The notes: generated by a model not told the origin, from the sequence alone. A DNA stretch of 64,000 nt from Gammaproteobacteria bacterium (GCA_027315405.1 DAHUYB010000077.1:24286-88285), one strand, 5' to 3'; positions 22,497 through 48,712 are shown, numbered from the stretch's first letter. Made by a program: numbers and translations.

Positions 22497-23477
22497 CTAA
22501 CCTGCTGCACAAAGTTCAAGCCGCCCGCCACCAGTGTCCAATGTACCGACCAATTCGGCAACCGTCTGGAGGCGATGCCGCGCGAGATAATCGGCGATGC
22601 CGGCATTAAGTTTCTTGCAGACCAGCGGGTCGTAGAACAAGGCTGTTCCCAGCCCGACCGCCGCGGCACCGGCCACCAGGAATTCCAGGGCATCATTGAC
22701 AGTGGTGACCCCCCCCTGGCCGATGATGGGGACCTGATGGGGCCGCGCGACCTGATACACCTGGTGCACCTTGAGGAGGGCTATGGGTTTGATAGCCGGA
22801 CCCGAAAGCCCTCCCTGGACGTTGCCGATGACCGGTTTGCGGGTTTCCGGATCAATGGCCATACCCATGAGCGTGTTGATGACCGCCAAACCGTCGGTGC
22901 CGGCCTCGATGCAGCGCCGGGCGTTATTCGCAATGTCCGTCTGGTTGGGGGAGAGCTTGGTGATCAGCGGCTTTTTGGTAACCCCGCGACAGGCGGCCAC
23001 CACCCGCGCCGACATCTCCGGATCGTTACCGAAGGCCACGCCGCCTTGCTTCACGTTCGGGCAGGAGATGTTGATCTCCATGGCATCAATAGGCGAATCA
23101 TCGAAGCGCCGCGTGACCTCCGCGTATTCTTCGACCGTTGAACCCGAAACATTAGCGATGAAACGGGTCTCGGAAAAATCCAGTGTCGGCAGGATCTTTT
23201 TCACCACGTGATCTACCCCAGGGTTCTGCAGGCCGATGGCGTTTAACATGCCCGCCGGAGTTTCGTAAATGCGGTGGGCTGGATTGCCGAGGCGCGGTTT
23301 CAAGGTAGTGCCTTTAAGGCACACGGCGCCCGCATCGCGGTTGGAAAATCCGGCCACGCGCGTATATTCTTCGCCGAACCCCACGCAGCCCGACAATAGC
23401 ACTAGTGGCGAATTGAATTTGAGACCACAGAAGTCGGTTTTTAGCGAATCAGGAAGAGTCTGTTCTCCATCGTCCAT
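22497..23477 (-). CDS. pyrD: dihydroorotate dehydrogenase, class 1B-type catalytic subunit
   Basis: Collinear with Bacillus PyrD as I recall it: SGCVGFGEEY, AGMLNAIGLQNPG, EINISCPNVKQGG (Cys active-site loop), GGLSGPAIKP and IIGQGGV. Confidence 0.85.
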   Translation of the reverse strand: MDDGEQTLPDSLKTDFCGLKFNSPLVLLSGCVGFGEEYTRVAGFSNRDAGAVCLKGTTLKPRLGNPAHRIYETPAGMLNAIGLQNPGVDHVVKKILPTLDFSETRFIANVSGSTVEEYAEVTRRFDDSPIDAMEINISCPNVKQGGVAFGNDPEMSARVVAACRGVTKKPLITKLSPNQTDIANNARRCIEAGTDGLAVINTLMGMAIDPETRKPVIGNVQGGLSGPAIKPIALLKVHQVYQVARPHQVPIIGQGGVTTVNDALEFLVAGAAAVGLGTALFYDPLVCKKLNAGIADYLARHRLQTVAELVGTLDTGGGRLELCAAG

Positions 23478-42129: not shown

Positions 42130-42240
42130 TTAGCGGGTAGTAAATGTGTTTCCAGGTTGTATTCCGAAGCTGCCTGCCACACCGGCCTTGAGTTCCAGAA
42201 CGTATTTTGCCGGGGCGGCGCTGGCACAGGTGGCTACTCT
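42130..42240 (-). pseudogene. orphan 3'-terminal remnant of a DUF192 gene
   Basis: The minus-strand translation ...CASAAPAKYVLELKAGVAGSFGIQPGNTFTTR(stop) parallels the C-terminus of the intact DUF192 gene at 46740..47192 (...YSSAAPAKYVLELHPGVAEKLGIRPGVILTIEP). No N-terminal part is present. Confidence 0.65.
42190..42224. repeat. left copy of the 35-nt direct repeat flanking the microcin islet
   Basis: GAGTTCCAGAACGTATTTTGCCGGGGCGGCGCTGG. Identical at 34/35 positions to 46803..46837. Confidence 0.9.
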
Positions 42241-42261: not shown

Positions 42262-42292
42262 TTGACAAAATCGCGCGGGGGGGGGGTAGGGT
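42262..42292 (+). promoter_or_regulatory. sigma70-like promoter candidate with a G10 homopolymer in the spacer
   Basis: Perfect -35 TTGACA (42262..42267), a 19-nt spacer containing G10 (42277..42286), and a weak -10 TAGGGT (42287..42292). Confidence 0.3.
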
Positions 42293-42306: not shown

Positions 42307-42336
42307 AGGACATACATTTTTACTGCTCACCATAAT
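42307..42336 (+). promoter_or_regulatory. sigma70-like promoter candidate proximal to the microcin gene
   Basis: AGGACA (42307..42312), 18-nt spacer, CATAAT (42331..42336). Lies about 28 nt upstream of ATG 42364. Confidence 0.35.
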
Positions 42337-42363
42337 TGCAAAATTACTCGAAAGGAGACAAAC

Positions 42364-42564
42364 ATGCGAAACCTTACCGCGAACGAATTCTCATTTGTAA
42401 GTGGTGGAGCACCAGCAGGTGAGTCCGAATTGGACACTGTCGCACAAGGTCTGGCCATTGGCGCTTTGGCAAACGCACTTGTTGGAGATGAACCAGGAGC
42501 GTTAACCTTAGCCGCGGCGGCGGGCGGAATAAAAATTGGCGAGTATATTTACTCGCTCTTTTAA
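42364..42564 (+). CDS. double-glycine-leader bacteriocin (class II microcin-like) precursor, 66 aa
   Basis: SD AAGGAG lies 8 nt upstream. The product is MRNLTANEFSFVSGG / APAGESELDTVAQGLAIGALANALVGDEPGALTLAAAAGGIKIGEYIYSLF. The leader is nearly superimposable on the colicin V leader MRTLTLNELDSVSGG. It is encoded next to a C39-ABC exporter. It is nested in the 135-aa track ORF 42157..42564. Confidence 0.75.
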   Translation: MRNLTANEFSFVSGGAPAGESELDTVAQGLAIGALANALVGDEPGALTLAAAAGGIKIGEYIYSLF

Positions 42565-42581
42565 AAACGAGATGATCTTTT

Positions 42582-42615
42582 GGTCCTTGTCAATTTGACA
42601 GGGACCTTTCGTTTT
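42582..42615 (+). terminator. intrinsic terminator/attenuator after the microcin gene
   Basis: 10-bp stem (GGTCCTTGTC 42582..42591 pairs with GACAGGGACC 42597..42606, one G-U pair), 5-nt loop, then UUUCGUUUU. Confidence 0.6.
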
Positions 42616-42651
42616 CACGTGAATTTCGATCTAAAAATTTCTGTACCAGCT

Positions 42652-43188
42652 ATGGTAAAAATCCACAAAATACGGCCTCTTGCAATCACCATTTGGCTAA
42701 TTGGGGTTGTAACACTCGGTTTAGGTCTTTATGTTTGGGGTATTAAATCAAATCCACTATTTTTCATGGAGATGTTGATATTTGGCTTAATTTGTATATG
42801 GATGACATTGTACAGCTACCTATGGGGGCATCAGAGAGGTCACCCGACACGATTTATTGCCATCGTGGTGTTTTCAAGTTTTTGTGTCTGCTTTTATCTG
42901 CGCTCGATCGGCATACTTGGCGGTCACTTATATTTTGTTATCCCGCTGTTATTTGTTGTGATTCTTATCTTGGTGCAATCTAAAACGAAACGACAATTTG
43001 CAGAAGACTATAAATCAGGCATTAAGCGAAATCATTTTAATGATACTAAAGAACGATTCGAGGTAACCAAAAAGACTACAGCCAGTTATCCCCACTATTT
43101 GCAAATAATTTTGCCCAAGCGATATTTGGACAACTATGATTCATTAAAAGCTTGGCTTAGATCGATTAAGGAACATATGCAAAAATAG
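42652..43188 (+). CDS. putative immunity protein (4-TM membrane protein, no recognised family)
   Basis: 179 aa from ATG 42652. Four hydrophobic helices then a Lys-rich cytoplasmic tail. AT-rich codon usage unlike the rest of the window. Sits in the immunity-gene position between the precursor and exporter genes. There is no clear SD. Confidence 0.5.
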   Translation: MVKIHKIRPLAITIWLIGVVTLGLGLYVWGIKSNPLFFMEMLIFGLICIWMTLYSYLWGHQRGHPTRFIAIVVFSSFCVCFYLRSIGILGGHLYFVIPLLFVVILILVQSKTKRQFAEDYKSGIKRNHFNDTKERFEVTKKTTASYPHYLQIILPKRYLDNYDSLKAWLRSIKEHMQK

Positions 43189-43354
43189 ATATAAAGCAGG
43201 AATTCCTATCATGGGAGACTGTAAATTGAACTGTGTAGCTGCTTCATGAGAGCTTACCACTGGCAGTCATGAGGAGTGAAGCGGATGATCCTCAAGTCGG
43301 AGACCTTGGACGAAGTGCTGAAAGATAGGCGTGCACCGCCCTGCGGGTATTTCC

Positions 43355-44598
43355 ATGCCTTCACTGTTCAGACCTGAAGTTTTCAAGCACAAAACAACCT
43401 TACGCTTCGGCGCCGTTATGGTGCCAACCCCTCTTCCTCTATGGTTTATGAGCACCTTTACGCTGATCTTGCTCGCCTCAATTGCCGCTTACTTCTGGGG
43501 GGGCATTACACGCGCAAGGTAACGGTGGAAGGCTATCTGCTACCTACGAAGGGACTGGTGCGCTTGTATGCGCCCGAGCTAGGCATTGTGAGCGAACGCA
43601 AGGTCGCGCAGGGTGGGCGCGTCCACAAAGATGACACGCTTCTGGTCATCGCGATTCCGCGCAGCTCAACTAGTGCGGCGAACGTAAATCAGGCGCTGGC
43701 GCAGGCCGTCGAGCAGACTGAGGCGGCGATCCACGCGCAGATGACCGAGGCCGTTGAGCTTGAGCAAAGCCAGGAAGCGTCGTTCCAGGCCAACCTCGTC
43801 AATTTGCGCACGAATTTGAGTGAAGAGCGTGCCCAGCTCAACACGCAGAAGAAATTGCTGGCGATCCTTGCGACGCGACAGAAGAAGTACGCCACATTTG
43901 AAGGCTCGGGATTGATCTCGGAATTGGACATCAGGAATGCGGAACAAGCGTGGCTGGAGCAGGTCGCGAAAGTCCAAGCACTGGAGCAATCCATTACACA
44001 GGCCACGGGTCAAATTCAGAGCACTCAGTTCCAGTTGGCGCAAGCCAATATCAACCTGCAAAACCAACTTGCCCAGTATCAACAATCGTTGAGCACGGCC
44101 GAACAGCAACTCACTCAATATCAGGCTGGGGACAACTTCGTACTCAAGGCGCCGGTGGACGGTACGGTGTCCGCCATGCTAGTGCAGCCGGGGCAGACGG
44201 TGTCTCCGCAAACCCCGCTGGTCATCTTGATGCCCACGGGGTCACAACTCGAAGCGCGTTTGTTGATCCCCGCGGGCGCCATGGGTTTCGTAAAAGTTGG
44301 CCAGAAAGTCAGGCTGCGTTACGACGCGTTTCCCTACCAGAACTTTGGCACTTATCAGGGACGCGTCACGCAGGTTTCCAATGCCGTTTTCACACCATCT
44401 GAACTACCGGGGCCGCTCGCCATCAACGCAGCCGTGTATCCCGTAGAAGTGGCGCTCGATTCACAGGATGTCATGGCCTACGGGCATCCGGTGGCGCTCC
44501 AGCCGGGCCTGTCACTGAGCGCGGATGTGCTCTTGGCTCGCGAACGCATTATTCAATGGCTATTTGAGCCACTTTACAGTTTGAAGGGCAAACTCTAG
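43355..44598 (+). pseudogene. cvaA: CvaA/HlyD-family membrane fusion protein, reading frame split at a G7 tract
   Basis: The N-terminal part (43355..43522, MPSLFRPEVFKHKTTLRFG...TM helix...AAYFWGG) and the main part (track ORF 43441..44598, ...GGHYTRKVTVEGYLLP...) are in different frames. One extra G in the run 43497..43503 joins them into a ~414-aa CvaA-like protein. Confidence 0.85.
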
Positions 44599-44619
44599 AA
44601 GTTCCCGGAGGACGTAGGA

Positions 44620-46731
44620 GTGACGCTGCGGTTCTCGCGCCGGCAGTTAACGGTAATGCTGCAAACCGAAGCCGCGGAATGCGGCCTTGCCTGCTTGGCC
44701 ATGGTTTTCAGTTTTCATGGCCACCGCATGGATGTGGGTGAGCTGCGGCGCCGATACAGTTTTTCTCTCAAGGGCGCGACACTCGCGCATCTCATTACCA
44801 TTGCCAACGGCTTGGGGTTCATCACGCGCCCCTTGCGGCTGGAACTTGAGGATTTACCAAAGCTTACCTGCCCCGCGATTCTGCACTGGGACTTGAATCA
44901 TTTCGTGGTGCTGAAGGCCGCACGCGGGCGCCACGTGGTGATTCACGATCCGGCTCGCGGGAGCCGCAGCCTCAATCTTGACGAGGTTTCCAAGCATTTT
45001 ACAGGCGTGGCGCTGGAGCTTGCTCCCGGCCACGGTTTTCAAACTAAAGCCGCTCCCGAAATACCAGCCATCTGGTCACTCCTTGGCGGTTGGCGGGGTA
45101 TGCTGGGCGCTCTTACCCAGATTCTGGTGTTTTCGCTGGCGCTGGAAGCCTTCGCGATTCTCAGCCCGTTCTTTACGCAGCTTGTCGTGGACCAGGTGCT
45201 GGTGAACCGCGACATGAACCTGTTGACGGTGCTCGGCATCGGTTTTGGTCTGCTGGCCATCATCAACGTGGTGGTCACGGCTTTGCGGGGTTGGATGGTG
45301 GCCTATCTCGGCAGTCACCTGCAATTTCACTCCGCGGCCGCGCTCATGCGGCATTTGGTGGGGTTGCCGTTGGACTTCTTCGCCAAAAGGCATATCGGCG
45401 ACGTGGTCTCGCGCTTTAATTCCATGAGCACCATTCAGCAGACCATGACTTCTGGGCTCATCGAGGCGCTGGTGGACGGCGTCATGGTGATATTCACCGT
45501 TGCCGTCATGTTGTTCTATAGCGTGCCGCTCACGCTGTTGATAGTCGCATTGATCGTGGGCTACGCAATCATCCGGTTTCTCGCCTACCGTCCGCTGCAC
45601 ACTGCCACCGAAGAGCAGATCATCCAGCTCGCCAAGCAGCAGTCCAATTTCCTGGAAACCGTGCGCGGCATGCAGAGTGTGAAAGTAGCCGGTTCCGAAG
45701 GAGAACGCCACACTCAGTATCAGAACCGGCTGGCGGACAACGTGAATGCTTCATTTATCGTCAGCAAGCTCGGTATCTGGTTCAAGGCCACAAACGGACT
45801 GTTGTTCGGTCTTGGGACCATCGCGGTGATCTGGTGGGGCGCAAGCGAAGTCATGGCCGGTATGTTGTCCATCGGCATGTTGATCGCATTCATTTCCTAC
45901 GCCAGCCAGAGCACCGGCAAGGCCGGGGCACTGATAGACAAAGCCATTGCCTTCCGCATGCTGCGGCTGCATGCGGAGCGGGTGGGCGATATTGTGTTTG
46001 CCGAGCCGGAGGCAGTTTCGTCTTTACCGCGGCTGGGACAGGTGCCCATCCGCGGCAGGATCGAAGTGGAGAATTTGTGCTACCGCTACGGTGATCTGGA
46101 AGCGCCGGTTCTGAGAAACGTGAGCTTTTACATCGAGCCAGGCGAGTCGGTAGGCATCGTTGGTCCGTCGGGCTGCGGCAAAACCACGTTGGTCAAGCTC
46201 CTGCTTGGCCTCATGCGGCCTACGGAAGGGACGATTAAGGTGGATGGTCTCGATATCCAGACCCTGGGCCTTTCTGAGTACCGTCGGCACGTGGGCGCGG
46301 TGATGCAAGAGGATCAGCTCTTTGCCGGTACTTTGTCGGACAATATCGCGTTTTTCGATCCGCAGGCGGATCAGTCATGGATTGAAACCTGTGCGAAACT
46401 CGCGGCTATCCACGGCGATATTCTGACCATGCCCATGGCCTACAACACGTTGATTGGCGACATGGGCACGGTTCTCTCCGGCGGCCAGAAGCAGAGAGTA
46501 CTGCTGGCGCGGGCACTTTATCGCCGACCGCGAATATTGCTGCTGGACGAGGCTACCAGCCACCTGGATGTACCCACGGAAAAACTGGTGAGCGACGCCG
46601 TGCGGCGACTGAAAATTACCCGCATTATTGTTGCTCATCGCTCCGAGACCATACGCTTAGTTGATCGGGTGCTTGGAATAATGCCGAATAAACCAGGTGT
46701 TACCGAACTGCGCAGAGTGAAAAATGTTTGA
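44620..46731 (+). CDS. cvaB: bacteriocin/microcin ABC exporter with N-terminal C39 peptidase domain (CvaB-like)
   Basis: 703 aa. QTEAAECGLACLAMV (catalytic Cys), HWDLNHFVVL, six TM segments, Walker A GPSGCGKTT, LSGGQKQR, LLLDEATSHLD. Collinear with CvaB as I recall it. Confidence 0.93.
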   Translation: MTLRFSRRQLTVMLQTEAAECGLACLAMVFSFHGHRMDVGELRRRYSFSLKGATLAHLITIANGLGFITRPLRLELEDLPKLTCPAILHWDLNHFVVLKAARGRHVVIHDPARGSRSLNLDEVSKHFTGVALELAPGHGFQTKAAPEIPAIWSLLGGWRGMLGALTQILVFSLALEAFAILSPFFTQLVVDQVLVNRDMNLLTVLGIGFGLLAIINVVVTALRGWMVAYLGSHLQFHSAAALMRHLVGLPLDFFAKRHIGDVVSRFNSMSTIQQTMTSGLIEALVDGVMVIFTVAVMLFYSVPLTLLIVALIVGYAIIRFLAYRPLHTATEEQIIQLAKQQSNFLETVRGMQSVKVAGSEGERHTQYQNRLADNVNASFIVSKLGIWFKATNGLLFGLGTIAVIWWGASEVMAGMLSIGMLIAFISYASQSTGKAGALIDKAIAFRMLRLHAERVGDIVFAEPEAVSSLPRLGQVPIRGRIEVENLCYRYGDLEAPVLRNVSFYIEPGESVGIVGPSGCGKTTLVKLLLGLMRPTEGTIKVDGLDIQTLGLSEYRRHVGAVMQEDQLFAGTLSDNIAFFDPQADQSWIETCAKLAAIHGDILTMPMAYNTLIGDMGTVLSGGQKQRVLLARALYRRPRILLLDEATSHLDVPTEKLVSDAVRRLKITRIIVAHRSETIRLVDRVLGIMPNKPGVTELRRVKNV

Positions 46732-46739
46732 CTGCTGCG

Positions 46740-47192
46740 TCATGGTTCAATGGTCAAAATAACGCCGGGACGGATTCCAAGCTTTTCCGCTACGCCCGGA
46801 TGGAGTTCCAGCACGTATTTTGCCGGGGCGGCGCTGGAATAAGAAGGGCAGGGATTCATCTTGCAAGGTGGCGTATCCGCCGACACGTTGATGAGCCGGC
46901 GCTGTGCATCGAAGAACAGAATATCCAATGGAATGAGTGTATGCTTCATCCAGAAATAACGCAGCTGCGCGTTGGAGTAGACAAACAGCATGCCGTGGCC
47001 GGCTGCCAAGTGCGTACGGTACATCAGACCGCGTTCACGGGCGGCGTCGGTGGCCGCAATTTCCACGCTGAAACTGTGACCTGCGAGTACCACGTGGGAT
47101 CCCGTAGGGGGCGCCGCAAACACGGCCGAGGTGACAATGAACAAGGCAAACAGAAGATTTCGACTTAAAATAAGAGGACGGCGCATCAGCAT
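46740..47192 (-). CDS. DUF192 domain-containing secreted protein
   Basis: 150 aa. Signal peptide, ...GLMYRTHLAAGHGMLFVY...WMKHTLIPLDILFFD...AAPAKYVLEL pattern of DUF192/COG1430. Confidence 0.8.
   Translation of the reverse strand: MLMRRPLILSRNLLFALFIVTSAVFAAPPTGSHVVLAGHSFSVEIAATDAARERGLMYRTHLAAGHGMLFVYSNAQLRYFWMKHTLIPLDILFFDAQRRLINVSADTPPCKMNPCPSYSSAAPAKYVLELHPGVAEKLGIRPGVILTIEP
46803..46837. repeat. right copy of the 35-nt direct repeat flanking the microcin islet
   Basis: GAGTTCCAGCACGTATTTTGCCGGGGCGGCGCTGG, inside the 3' end of the intact DUF192 gene. Confidence 0.9.
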
Positions 47193-47206: not shown

Positions 47207-48712
47207 TTAGTTGATTGGCATTCCCGGCGGCTGCTTGGTGAAGTCTTGCGGTGAAGGATTCTGGGTCAGGCGGTACACGCCCTCTCGTAGGATGCGGCGC
47301 ATGACGATATCCACGATGGTGGTCTGGTTGGGCTTGATGAAATTCCTGAGATTAACCGCCGTCGCCTTAAGGGTCGCCGGCTGATAGAGCACGAAGCCAT
47401 CCTGGGGGTAGGGCACCACGCGCAGGCCGAGGCCGTCGCAGGGCGGCAGCGCTGGCCGCAATTGCCGGCCTTTGTACATCACCGCCGGGCCGCCCAGCAT
47501 GCGGGTGTAATTGAGGTAGTAGGTGATGGTGCCGGGATCCAGGTGATTGCGCTGGCGGTCGATGAAAAATCCCGGCGGCAGGTGGTTGGGGCTATTGTCT
47601 TTGCCGGCGGTGAGAACGATATCGAAATCCTTGATGGCATTGCCTTGGTCGTCGCGCACCCGAAAAATGAGCATGCAGCAGGGATCCACGATTACCTGAT
47701 GATCGAAGGGACCAAGGCTGCCGCGGTCCTCCACTTGTTCTTGTTGTTGGACCTCCGCCGTTTGCGCGCGGAAGCTGTCGAAGAGTTCAGCGTAATCCTT
47801 GAGGGTGGTGACCCGCAGGCATTGTAGAATGCCCGTTACAGTGGCGTTGGGGGTGGCATCGGCGGGAATGCTGCGCATGATGCCCATGCGCAGGTCCGAA
47901 TGACAGACGCCGGGGATTACCGCCAACGGCACCGCCGCTGAAATTTCCGGTGCCCCGGCCTGCAGCAACGGGGCGCTGAAACCCAGCTTCGACTTTTTGT
48001 CCGCCGTTGGTGGTTGCTGTTTCAGGCGCACATAGGTGTAATTCAAGTTGGCAGCCGCCACCCGGACCACGCCATCGGAGCCGTTTTCCGCGGTGTAGCT
48101 GTTCACAAAATCGTAAAGTTGAGGATCGTGGGATTCGCCGCTGAGCACGAAGGGAAACAAGCCCTGCGAGCCGATATAGTCCGCGCCCTGTTGCAGCCAT
48201 TCGAGATTGAGTTTGAGACTCTGGGGACTGCCCAGTTCCAGCCATTCCAGTACGCCGGTACCCACGTCCACGCCCTCGAACCAGGCCTTGAGGCGCGAGA
48301 GCTTGGACAGCCCCAGTTGTACCAAAGCCGAACCGAAGTTCGCGGGCGCCAGCATGATGAGATGGCTCAGGGGCGAATGCTTGCGGCCAGCGTTGATATA
48401 GAAATGCTGCAGCCAGGCACGGATCACCGGGCAGCCGGTGGAATGGGCGATGCAGGCGATACGTTGCCCATTTTTGATGGCCTCGCCCAGCTCCCGTTCC
48501 AAGGCCGTCTGGAAGGCGCGGGCAATATCCGGAATGGTGACTTCGTTGTGGAAACTGATGTATTCCGACAGCCAGAGATTGCGTACCTCGATGTCCAAAT
48601 CGGGCGAACGCTTGGCTTCCAGTTTGAGGCGCTGCGGCAGACCGCCGTAAGTATCGGTATTGCGCACGCTCCAGCCGTGTACCAGCACCACCAGGCGCTT
48701 TTGCTTAGCCAT
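47207..48712 (-). CDS. alpha/beta-hydrolase lipase, PlaB-like phospholipase A candidate
   Basis: 501 aa. VVLVHGWSV, the uncommon nucleophile motif AHSTG (PlaB has THSTG), LIMLAPANFGSAL, GSDGVVRVAAANLNY. A ~250-aa C-terminal domain of unknown fold follows. Confidence 0.6.
   Translation of the reverse strand: MAKQKRLVVLVHGWSVRNTDTYGGLPQRLKLEAKRSPDLDIEVRNLWLSEYISFHNEVTIPDIARAFQTALERELGEAIKNGQRIACIAHSTGCPVIRAWLQHFYINAGRKHSPLSHLIMLAPANFGSALVQLGLSKLSRLKAWFEGVDVGTGVLEWLELGSPQSLKLNLEWLQQGADYIGSQGLFPFVLSGESHDPQLYDFVNSYTAENGSDGVVRVAAANLNYTYVRLKQQPPTADKKSKLGFSAPLLQAGAPEISAAVPLAVIPGVCHSDLRMGIMRSIPADATPNATVTGILQCLRVTTLKDYAELFDSFRAQTAEVQQQEQVEDRGSLGPFDHQVIVDPCCMLIFRVRDDQGNAIKDFDIVLTAGKDNSPNHLPPGFFIDRQRNHLDPGTITYYLNYTRMLGGPAVMYKGRQLRPALPPCDGLGLRVVPYPQDGFVLYQPATLKATAVNLRNFIKPNQTTIVDIVMRRILREGVYRLTQNPSPQDFTKQPPGMPIN

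Follow-up and report, generated by a model that had tools for sequence, protein, structure and literature searches.

Organization of the island and its genes

The DNA analyzed here, hereafter the window, is a stretch of 64,000 nucleotides from an uncultured gammaproteobacterium. We found in it a cluster of four co-directional genes that encode a small peptide, a membrane protein, an MFP and a C39-peptidase ABC exporter (PCAT), and that lie on a 4613-bp insertion in the 3' end of a DUF192 gene, with 35-bp direct repeats at both edges (Table 1). Apart from these four genes and a DUF192 end the island holds nothing else that we could recognize; no modification enzyme, sensor kinase, response regulator, integrase or TolC gene was found in it.

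Table 1. Coordinates of the features of the island and its edges, counted from the first nucleotide of the window.
Feature	Position	Strand	Basis or remark
Remnant of the native DUF192 3' end, displaced when the island entered, ending in LKAGVAGSFGIQPGNTFTTR and stop	42130..42189	-	Identical to the intact DUF192 3' end in L083, L084 and L085
Left 35-bp direct repeat, GAGTTCCAG(A/C)ACGTATTTTGCCGGGGCGGCGCTGG; left junction	42190..42224		Empty-site alignment; repeat family D1, spacing 4613 nt
Possible promoter element: TTGACA (42262-42267), G10 (42277-42286), TAGGGT	42262..42292	+	L001 alignment; homopolymer census
Candidate sigma-70-like match, AGGACA-18 nt-CATAAT	42307..42336	+	Consensus scan; not above regional shuffle expectation
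Shine-Dalgarno AGGAG	42353-42357	+	Sequence; ATG 6 nt further on
Peptide ORF, start ATG, stop TAA	42364..42564	+	Translation
Double-glycine leader, 15 aa	42364..42408	+	Cleavage predicted after G15
Core peptide, 51 aa and stop	42409..42564	+	Rich in Ala and Gly, without Cys, net charge -5; a helix-GDEPG-helix hairpin is predicted
Intrinsic-terminator-like hairpin, 11-bp stem (42582-42606), then T-rich tail	42582..42616	+	Directly after the peptide stop
Membrane protein, 178 aa, candidate immunity	42652..43188	+	Four predicted TM helices (hydropathy); basic tail of ~65 aa
HlyD/CvaA-type MFP, frameshifted as assembled	43355..44598	+	Pfam HlyD_3; NCBIfam type_I_hlyD, below that model's cut-off
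PCAT, 703 aa: C39 peptidase, ABC membrane and ABC ATPase domains	44620..46731	+	Pfam
Island-borne diverged DUF192 3' end, ending in HPGVAEKLGIRPGVILTIEP and stop, now completing the resident DUF192	46740..46802	-	Absent from empty-site alleles
Right 35-bp direct repeat; right junction	46803..46837		Repeat D1; empty-site alignment

The empty site was found in three contigs picked by their identical DUF2062 protein (L083, L084 [GCA_027441035.1] and L085). In these contigs DUF2062 abuts DUF192, the flanks are 99.6 to 99.8% identical to those in the window, and the alignment runs up to position 42224 and resumes at 46803, with 35 bp common to both junctions. A lineage that is 95% identical (L087) is likewise empty, with DUF2062 abutting DUF192, and the short contigs L086 and L088 have the same adjacency. 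The island-borne and native DUF192 3' ends are 75% identical over repeat D1. In L001, a contig that carries the peptide gene of a second lineage, a DUF192 3' fragment lies to the left of the peptide promoter, and the crossover point differs from that in the window, which points to homology-driven, Campbell-type integration and not to a fixed att site. The anatomy of the island and the empty site are clean, yet typical of bacteriocin loci, and the absence of the cluster from sibling strains is as expected of a bacteriocin accessory locus. Adjoining DUF192 on the minus strand is a 501-aa ORF (47207-48712) with a GHSTG lipase-like motif and no Pfam or NCBIfam match; it has the same place and length in the island-negative L083, L084 and L087.

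The peptide ORF encodes a 66-aa precursor, in which the leader MRNLTANEFSFVSGG is followed by the core APAGESELDTVAQGLAIGALANALVGDEPGALTLAAAAGGIKIGEYIYSLF. The leader has L at position -12, E at -8, F at -7, V at -4 and GG at -2/-1, and a five-point double-glycine leader test, applied to the six reading frames over the full 64 kb, gave the top score to this ORF alone. The leader also has the makeup of a class II microcin signal, namely a length of 15 to 18 aa, an end in GG, GA or GS, and hydrophobic residues at -4, -7 and -12. As references we used a CvaC sequence, which matches the cvaC annotated in plasmids of E. coli at 100% identity, together with the neighbors of that gene; by blastp, the CvaC leader and first core residue are identical to those of the peptide at 11 of the 16 aligned positions (residues 1 to 16). 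A first-pass annotation of this DNA had described a 15-residue, ColV-like leader with hydrophobic residues at -4, -7 and -12, Glu at -8 and GG, and this description proved exact by translation. The exporter gene lies ~2 kb downstream of the peptide ORF.

Upstream of the ORF, the Shine-Dalgarno block CTCGAAAGGAGACAAACATG is unchanged in L001, and the alignment 5' of the ATG has indels of 5, 2 and 1 nt between the window and L001. These indels break the frame, so a longer in-frame extension from a TTG codon is not conserved as coding. The TTGACA hexamer further upstream is conserved in L001, where the G10 tract is a G8 (at about L001 104-111). We considered and rejected this hexamer and G tract as a fixed-spacer sigma-70 promoter: the nearest -10-like hexamer lies at 19 nt in the window and at 14 nt in L001, and an element in which the spacer length differs in this way does not behave like such a promoter. 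The -10 hexamer CATAAT of the other candidate is kept in L001. The hairpin that follows the stop codon has a minimum free energy of -23.3 kcal/mol (z = -4.8), and its stem is kept in L001 through a compensatory change of T-A to A-T, a change of T.G to C-G and one of A-T to G.T. When the island was searched with Rfam, only a PyrG-leader match to this hairpin was obtained, which was below threshold (30.7 versus 65 bits) and was rejected.

The 178-aa ORF starts 87 nt past the peptide gene. Its product had no match above cut-off in Pfam, NCBIfam or PHROGs, and AlphaFold2 predicted four long helices for it, at low confidence (pLDDT 56.5). Microcin immunity proteins are adjacent to the peptide gene, membrane spanning and up to 216 aa long (PMC12219008); at 178 aa, the candidate exceeds the size of classical immunity proteins.

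In the PCAT, Pfam detected Peptidase_C39 (1e-33), ABC_membrane (9e-37) and ABC_tran (3e-35) domains. Over 690 residues the protein shares 38% identity with CvaB, and the catalytic C32 and H105 of CvaB are conserved as C21 and H94. The peptide gene is therefore accompanied by an adjoining C39 PCAT with its catalytic Cys and His and by an MFP, the latter frameshifted as assembled. The best match to the PCAT in the GTDB representative set is 56% identical.

Conservation of the peptide and membrane protein genes

A word-seeded search of 5.8 billion proteins returned, besides the queries themselves, a single homologue of the peptide (P0002, 94% aa identity) and a single homologue of the 178-aa protein (P0032, 79% identical). 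In an exhaustive phmmer search of 1.84 billion representatives, P0002 was again the sole genuine relative of the peptide; three giant Ig-repeat proteins in the output had matched through repeated low-complexity stretches and were set aside as spurious. The peptide had no match in plasmids by tblastn or in a scan of JGI metagenome contigs, and a sequence search of the PDB gave nothing meaningful.

This second lineage is known from three short contigs of other samples, L001, L089 and L090. The peptide gene is complete on L001, and the other two contigs begin within it. In all three, the P0032 gene is directly 3' of the peptide gene, and the two adjacent genes have the order and spacing seen in the window. 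The first-pass annotation had proposed a homologue search of the core and a check of whether the ORF is kept in related loci. The ORF is indeed kept, in one other lineage and at 94% aa identity, while the search for relatives of the core led to the P0002 lineage and to no characterized relative.

Between the window and L001, the peptide gene has seven synonymous and four nonsynonymous codon changes, which give a dN/dS of 0.18 (Nei-Gojobori); the value is 0.17 for the core alone and 0.18 for the 178-aa protein by the same method. Judged from the sequences, this dN/dS, the invariant Shine-Dalgarno block, the compensation in the hairpin and the upstream indels that do not preserve the frame argue that the peptide ORF is a genuine small gene under selection and that it has a terminator of its own. 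Within the 178-aa protein, the changes between the lineages gather in the TM helices, and the cytoplasmic C-terminal tail (~109-178) is far better kept.

The genes of the island differ in base composition and in divergence. The GC content is 51% in the peptide gene and 37% in the 178-aa gene, compared to 56 to 60% in the transport genes and host DNA (host, 58%). Nucleotide identity between the window and L001/L089 falls from 94.5% in the peptide gene to 82.5% in the 178-aa gene and 72% in the MFP gene, and dS differs fourfold between the two neighbors, with 0.15 for the peptide and 0.61 for the membrane protein (window 42364-43188 versus L001 185-1008). That the peptide-immunity module is far better kept than the MFP between the lineages suggests, at the level of sequence comparison, that this low-GC pair moves as a cassette and has a mosaic history.

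L089 has three extra genes between the immunity candidate and the MFP (L089 1078-2525) that are absent from the window. They encode membrane proteins of 131 and 96 aa and a 254-aa CPBP/Rce1-like protein (PF02517), a family associated with bacteriocin immunity. Positions 43195-43320 of the window are not homologous to L089 790-2533.

The mature core and its relation to known microcins

Cleavage after the double glycine would leave a core with 12 Ala, 8 Gly, 4 Glu, 2 Asp, 2 Ser, 2 Thr, 1 Lys and no Cys, an average mass of 4931.5 Da (monoisotopic, 4928.57), a pI of 4.05 and a net charge of -5. It is 58.8% hydrophobic and 15.7% Gly, and thus has the size and composition of a class II microcin (below 10 kDa, at ~5 to 10, Gly-rich and hydrophobic), with its 4.93 kDa placing it at the small end. 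The N terminus is acidic (APAGESELD), the Ala/Gly runs include AAAAGG and two copies of GAL, and the peptide ends in GGIKIGEYIYSLF (EYIYSLF), without a Ser-rich tail. The length of 51 aa and all of the residue counts given in the first-pass annotation agree with ours, its six acidic residues being the 4 Glu and 2 Asp, and two deductions made there also hold, namely that a disulfide is impossible since the core has no Cys and that the Ser-rich C terminus of class IIb microcins is missing. Helix prediction, which had been suggested as a follow-up, gave two helices (20-40 and 44-65) with AlphaFold2, at low confidence (pLDDT 54.7). The hydrophobic moments of the two core helices are low (0.08 and 0.18), and in this model the core has the look of a hairpin that inserts into membranes, and not that of a pore former of the cationic, amphipathic sort.

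One of the known systems closest to the one described here is that of microcin V, with which it shares a 15-residue double-glycine leader, a gene set for a peptide, a small membrane protein, an HlyD-type MFP and a C39 PCAT, and a Gly/Ala-rich hydrophobic region in the peptide. In contrast to CvaC, which has 88 aa, a C-terminal Cys pair and a charge of about 0, the core has 51 aa, no Cys and a charge of -5, and the two cores do not align, the blastp match reaching over residues 1 to 16 only. The loci also differ in gene order and orientation, and the cluster is on a chromosomal island without a plasmid match, unlike that on the ColV plasmid. The Pfam MccV model (PF17508) gave an E value of 9e-4 and 20.1 bits, under the gathering cut-off of 27 for membership in the family.

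The first-pass annotation had taken the net charge of -5 and the lack of Cys to be unusual, and this argument fell away on comparison with other microcins. MccE492 is Cys-free with a charge of -3.99, MccL has a charge of -3.36, and MccN (Mcc24), a class IIa microcin of 74 aa, also has no Cys and is cationic at +2 (PMC10233263). Microcins are for the most part neutral or anionic, since they rely on receptors, and not on charge, for passage across the outer membrane (PMC10233263). With MccN, as judged from its published properties, the peptide shares the unmodified class IIa type and the absence of Cys from the mature peptide, and differs in length (51 versus 74 aa) and charge (-5 versus +2). 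With the class IIb microcins E492, H47 and M it shares a Cys-free, Gly/Ala-rich and neutral to anionic core, and MccH47 is of similar size (60 aa, 4.86 kDa); the Gly content of microcins ranges from 12.9 to 26.7% (PMC10233263). Unlike the class IIb microcins, however, the peptide does not have a Ser/Gly-rich C terminus ending in Ser and its island has no siderophore-attachment genes, and on both grounds it is not class IIb. At the gene level, the island, with its peptide, membrane protein, MFP and PCAT genes, has none of the modification genes that would set it apart from class IIa, and this, together with the missing Ser-rich tail, assigns the peptide to the class IIa type. A Smith-Waterman comparison of the core with the sequence that we take to be that of MccM gave a z of 3.7, slightly above shuffles.

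We also examined 80 related loci with PCATs that are 47 to 56% identical, from Rhodanobacter, Stenotrophomonas, Methylomonas, Kangiella, Aquimarina and others. These loci contain dozens of double-glycine peptides, many of which have the same leader type as the one described here (MRNLT..E...SGG or MRNL...SGG), and 11 of the 80 carry Cys-free, net-negative, Ala/Gly-rich double-glycine peptides, a further point against the oddity of the one described here. The uncharacterized peptides that go with such PCATs (in Rhodanobacter, Stenotrophomonas, Methylococcaceae, Aquimarina and others) resemble it in leader type, length (40 to 65 aa), composition and charge (net -2 to -6) and share its exporter family, but homology between the cores is not demonstrable. 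In 21 Smith-Waterman comparisons of the core with Ala/Gly-rich peptides of related loci and known microcins, z was at most 4.6 against composition-preserving shuffles, and hhalign gave probabilities of 2 to 4%, marginally over column shuffles; we rejected these values as evidence for a family. The 178-aa protein has no clear counterpart in the 80 loci either, the one tblastn match being weak and partial (L036, E value of 0.075, 24% identity). The Aquimarina PCAT loci (L011 950-4650 and 13231-13425; L004, L009, L019 and L020) have arrays of at least 10 double-glycine peptide genes. Two or more leader types occur in these arrays: leaders of the form MKxKKKLSLKK...GG precede Cys-rich cores, and those of the form MRNLKxxE...GG precede cores rich in Ala and Gly.

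Outside the Enterobacteriaceae, MccAB1 (Mcc17978) of Acinetobacter baumannii is a class II microcin that is exported by a PCAT and MFP and permeabilizes the inner membrane (PMC13188072). The peptide is like MccAB1 in its class II type, its PCAT and MFP and its small-residue motifs, and differs in that the immunity context of MccAB1 consists of a cupin protein and a hidden small ORF. No sequence relation to MccAB1 was found in the exhaustive search of 1.84 billion representatives.

Proposed function of the peptide and alternative explanations

That the product is a PCAT-processed, exported peptide is in our view very probable. With less assurance, we favor the more specific reading in which the ORF encodes the precursor of an unmodified microcin of the class IIa type and belongs to a 4.6-kb accessory island of an uncultured gammaproteobacterium. 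The proposal of a new class II microcin in the first-pass annotation thus survives by way of the leader, the PCAT and MFP, the membrane protein, purifying selection and the island, and without the part of its argument that drew on charge and missing Cys.

As a microcin, the peptide would act as follows. A 66-aa precursor would be translated from the strong ribosome-binding site, and the terminator hairpin would probably raise the level of the peptide transcript above that of transcripts that read through into the genes that follow. Recognition of the leader through L-12, E-8, F-7, V-4 and GG, and cleavage after Gly15, would fall to the C39 domain of the PCAT, and the 51-aa, 4.93-kDa core would leave by way of the PCAT and HlyD-type adaptor, with a TolC-like protein encoded elsewhere as the outer membrane channel. 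The mature peptide is predicted to have an acidic N terminus followed by two apolar, small-residue helices of low amphipathicity that contain small-xxx-small motifs and have a GDEPG turn between them. It would most likely enter related cells by a specific receptor and then insert into the inner membrane or bind a protein there, so that membrane function would collapse, and the 178-aa four-helix membrane protein would shield the producer. By analogy with MccV, MccE492 and MccAB1 (PMC10233263; PMC13188072), we lean toward a peptide that enters by a receptor and acts on close relatives at their inner membrane, while the 178-aa protein protects the cell that makes it.

A PCAT-exported double-glycine peptide could also have a main role other than killing, in signaling or as a self-assembling matrix or amyloid, as for MccAB1 and MccE492. 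Non-bacteriocin double-glycine peptides also leave through PCATs (PMC7018657), A. baumannii microcins form amyloid fibers via GAV-type small-residue motifs and promote biofilm (PMC13188072), and the core is rich in Ala/Gly runs. In addition, only 31 of 106 leader-selected candidates, or about 30%, were antibacterial in the largest published screen, in which few strains were tested (PMC12219008). Against a signaling role, the co-conserved and tightly linked four-helix membrane protein fits immunity better, and the island has neither a sensor kinase nor a response regulator. L089 adds to its version of the cluster the CPBP/Rce1-like protein, whose family is linked to immunity, and the strain-variable presence of the cluster is typical of toxin loci and speaks against a non-killing role in general. 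We therefore regard this alternative as unlikely, although it is not exclusive of the microcin reading, since killing and amyloid functions coexist in MccAB1.

About equally unlikely is a locus that is decaying or switched off, with an intact peptide gene and an exporter lost to the MFP frameshift, as either a pseudogenized island or one in a phase-variable OFF state. The N-terminal part of the MFP (ATG 43355, MPSLFRPEVFKHKTT to AAYFWGG) and the remainder (from HYTRKVTVEGY on) are in different frames, and three-frame translation places the switch at a 1-nt frameshift in the G7 run at 43497-43503, where one more G restores AAYFWGGHYTRKVTVEGY. The L089 homologue is intact and reads through this point. 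The first-pass annotation had missed this frameshift. A third-sample contig, L092, is 99.6% identical and covers only 43874-44814, without the G7 run; its positions 1-94 are an inverted copy of its own sequence (versus 89-1029), probably an assembly artifact. Only three G or C runs of at least 7 nt occur in the 64-kb window, and two of the three fall in the 4.6-kb island (the G10 tract at 42277-42286 and the G7 run), the third being a C8 at 22709-22716; the promoter-proximal tract also varies between the lineages, G10 versus G8. The frameshift could reflect phase variation, a pseudogene or an error of assembly, and, except in the last case, export may be off in this strain. Assemblies of metagenomes often get homopolymer lengths wrong, however, and the two identical assemblies may stem from the same reads. 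Every other gene of the island is intact, and purifying selection acts on both the peptide and the membrane protein.

It is far less plausible that the ORF encodes the precursor of a posttranslationally modified peptide (RiPP). The best NCBIfam model for the PCAT, NHLM_micro_ABC1, does belong to the NHLP-bacteriocin exporter family, but the match is far under the cut-off (502 versus 853 bits). The peptide itself has no NCBIfam match to the NHLP or Nif11 leader models, the island has no modification enzyme, and the core offers no Cys and only two Ser and two Thr. Finally, a chance ORF that is not expressed, for which the lack of any curated family at threshold might be cited, is effectively refuted by conservation and context: the strong Shine-Dalgarno sequence, the unique leader match, the exporter, 94% conservation, a dN/dS of 0.18 and the covarying terminator.

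A bolder form of the microcin reading can be put together from the same observations, and we consider it decidedly doubtful. In it, the peptide and its 178-aa partner would be a new toxin-immunity family, with a class IIa-type microcin shorter and more acidic than any before it and a new receptor or target; the low-GC cassette would move between diverged PCAT islands that enter by integrase-less single crossover in the DUF192 3' end; and production would be toggled by slippage at the G10 tract near the promoter and at G7/G8 in the MFP.

The peptide sequence is new, and unusually short and acidic, and the kind of system to which it belongs is already well known. Among Gram-negative bacteria, class II microcins are plentiful and their sequences vary extremely (PMC12219008), so the peptide would be one more sequence-novel example and not a new principle. 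If it is active, an uncultured gammaproteobacterium from the environment would have yielded an unmodified microcin that is free of Cys and very short (51 aa, chemically synthesizable), and because its core is unrelated to any characterized microcin, it might lead to a membrane target or uptake receptor that is new. The natural occurrence of siblings with and without the island identifies the likely ecological targets of such a peptide.
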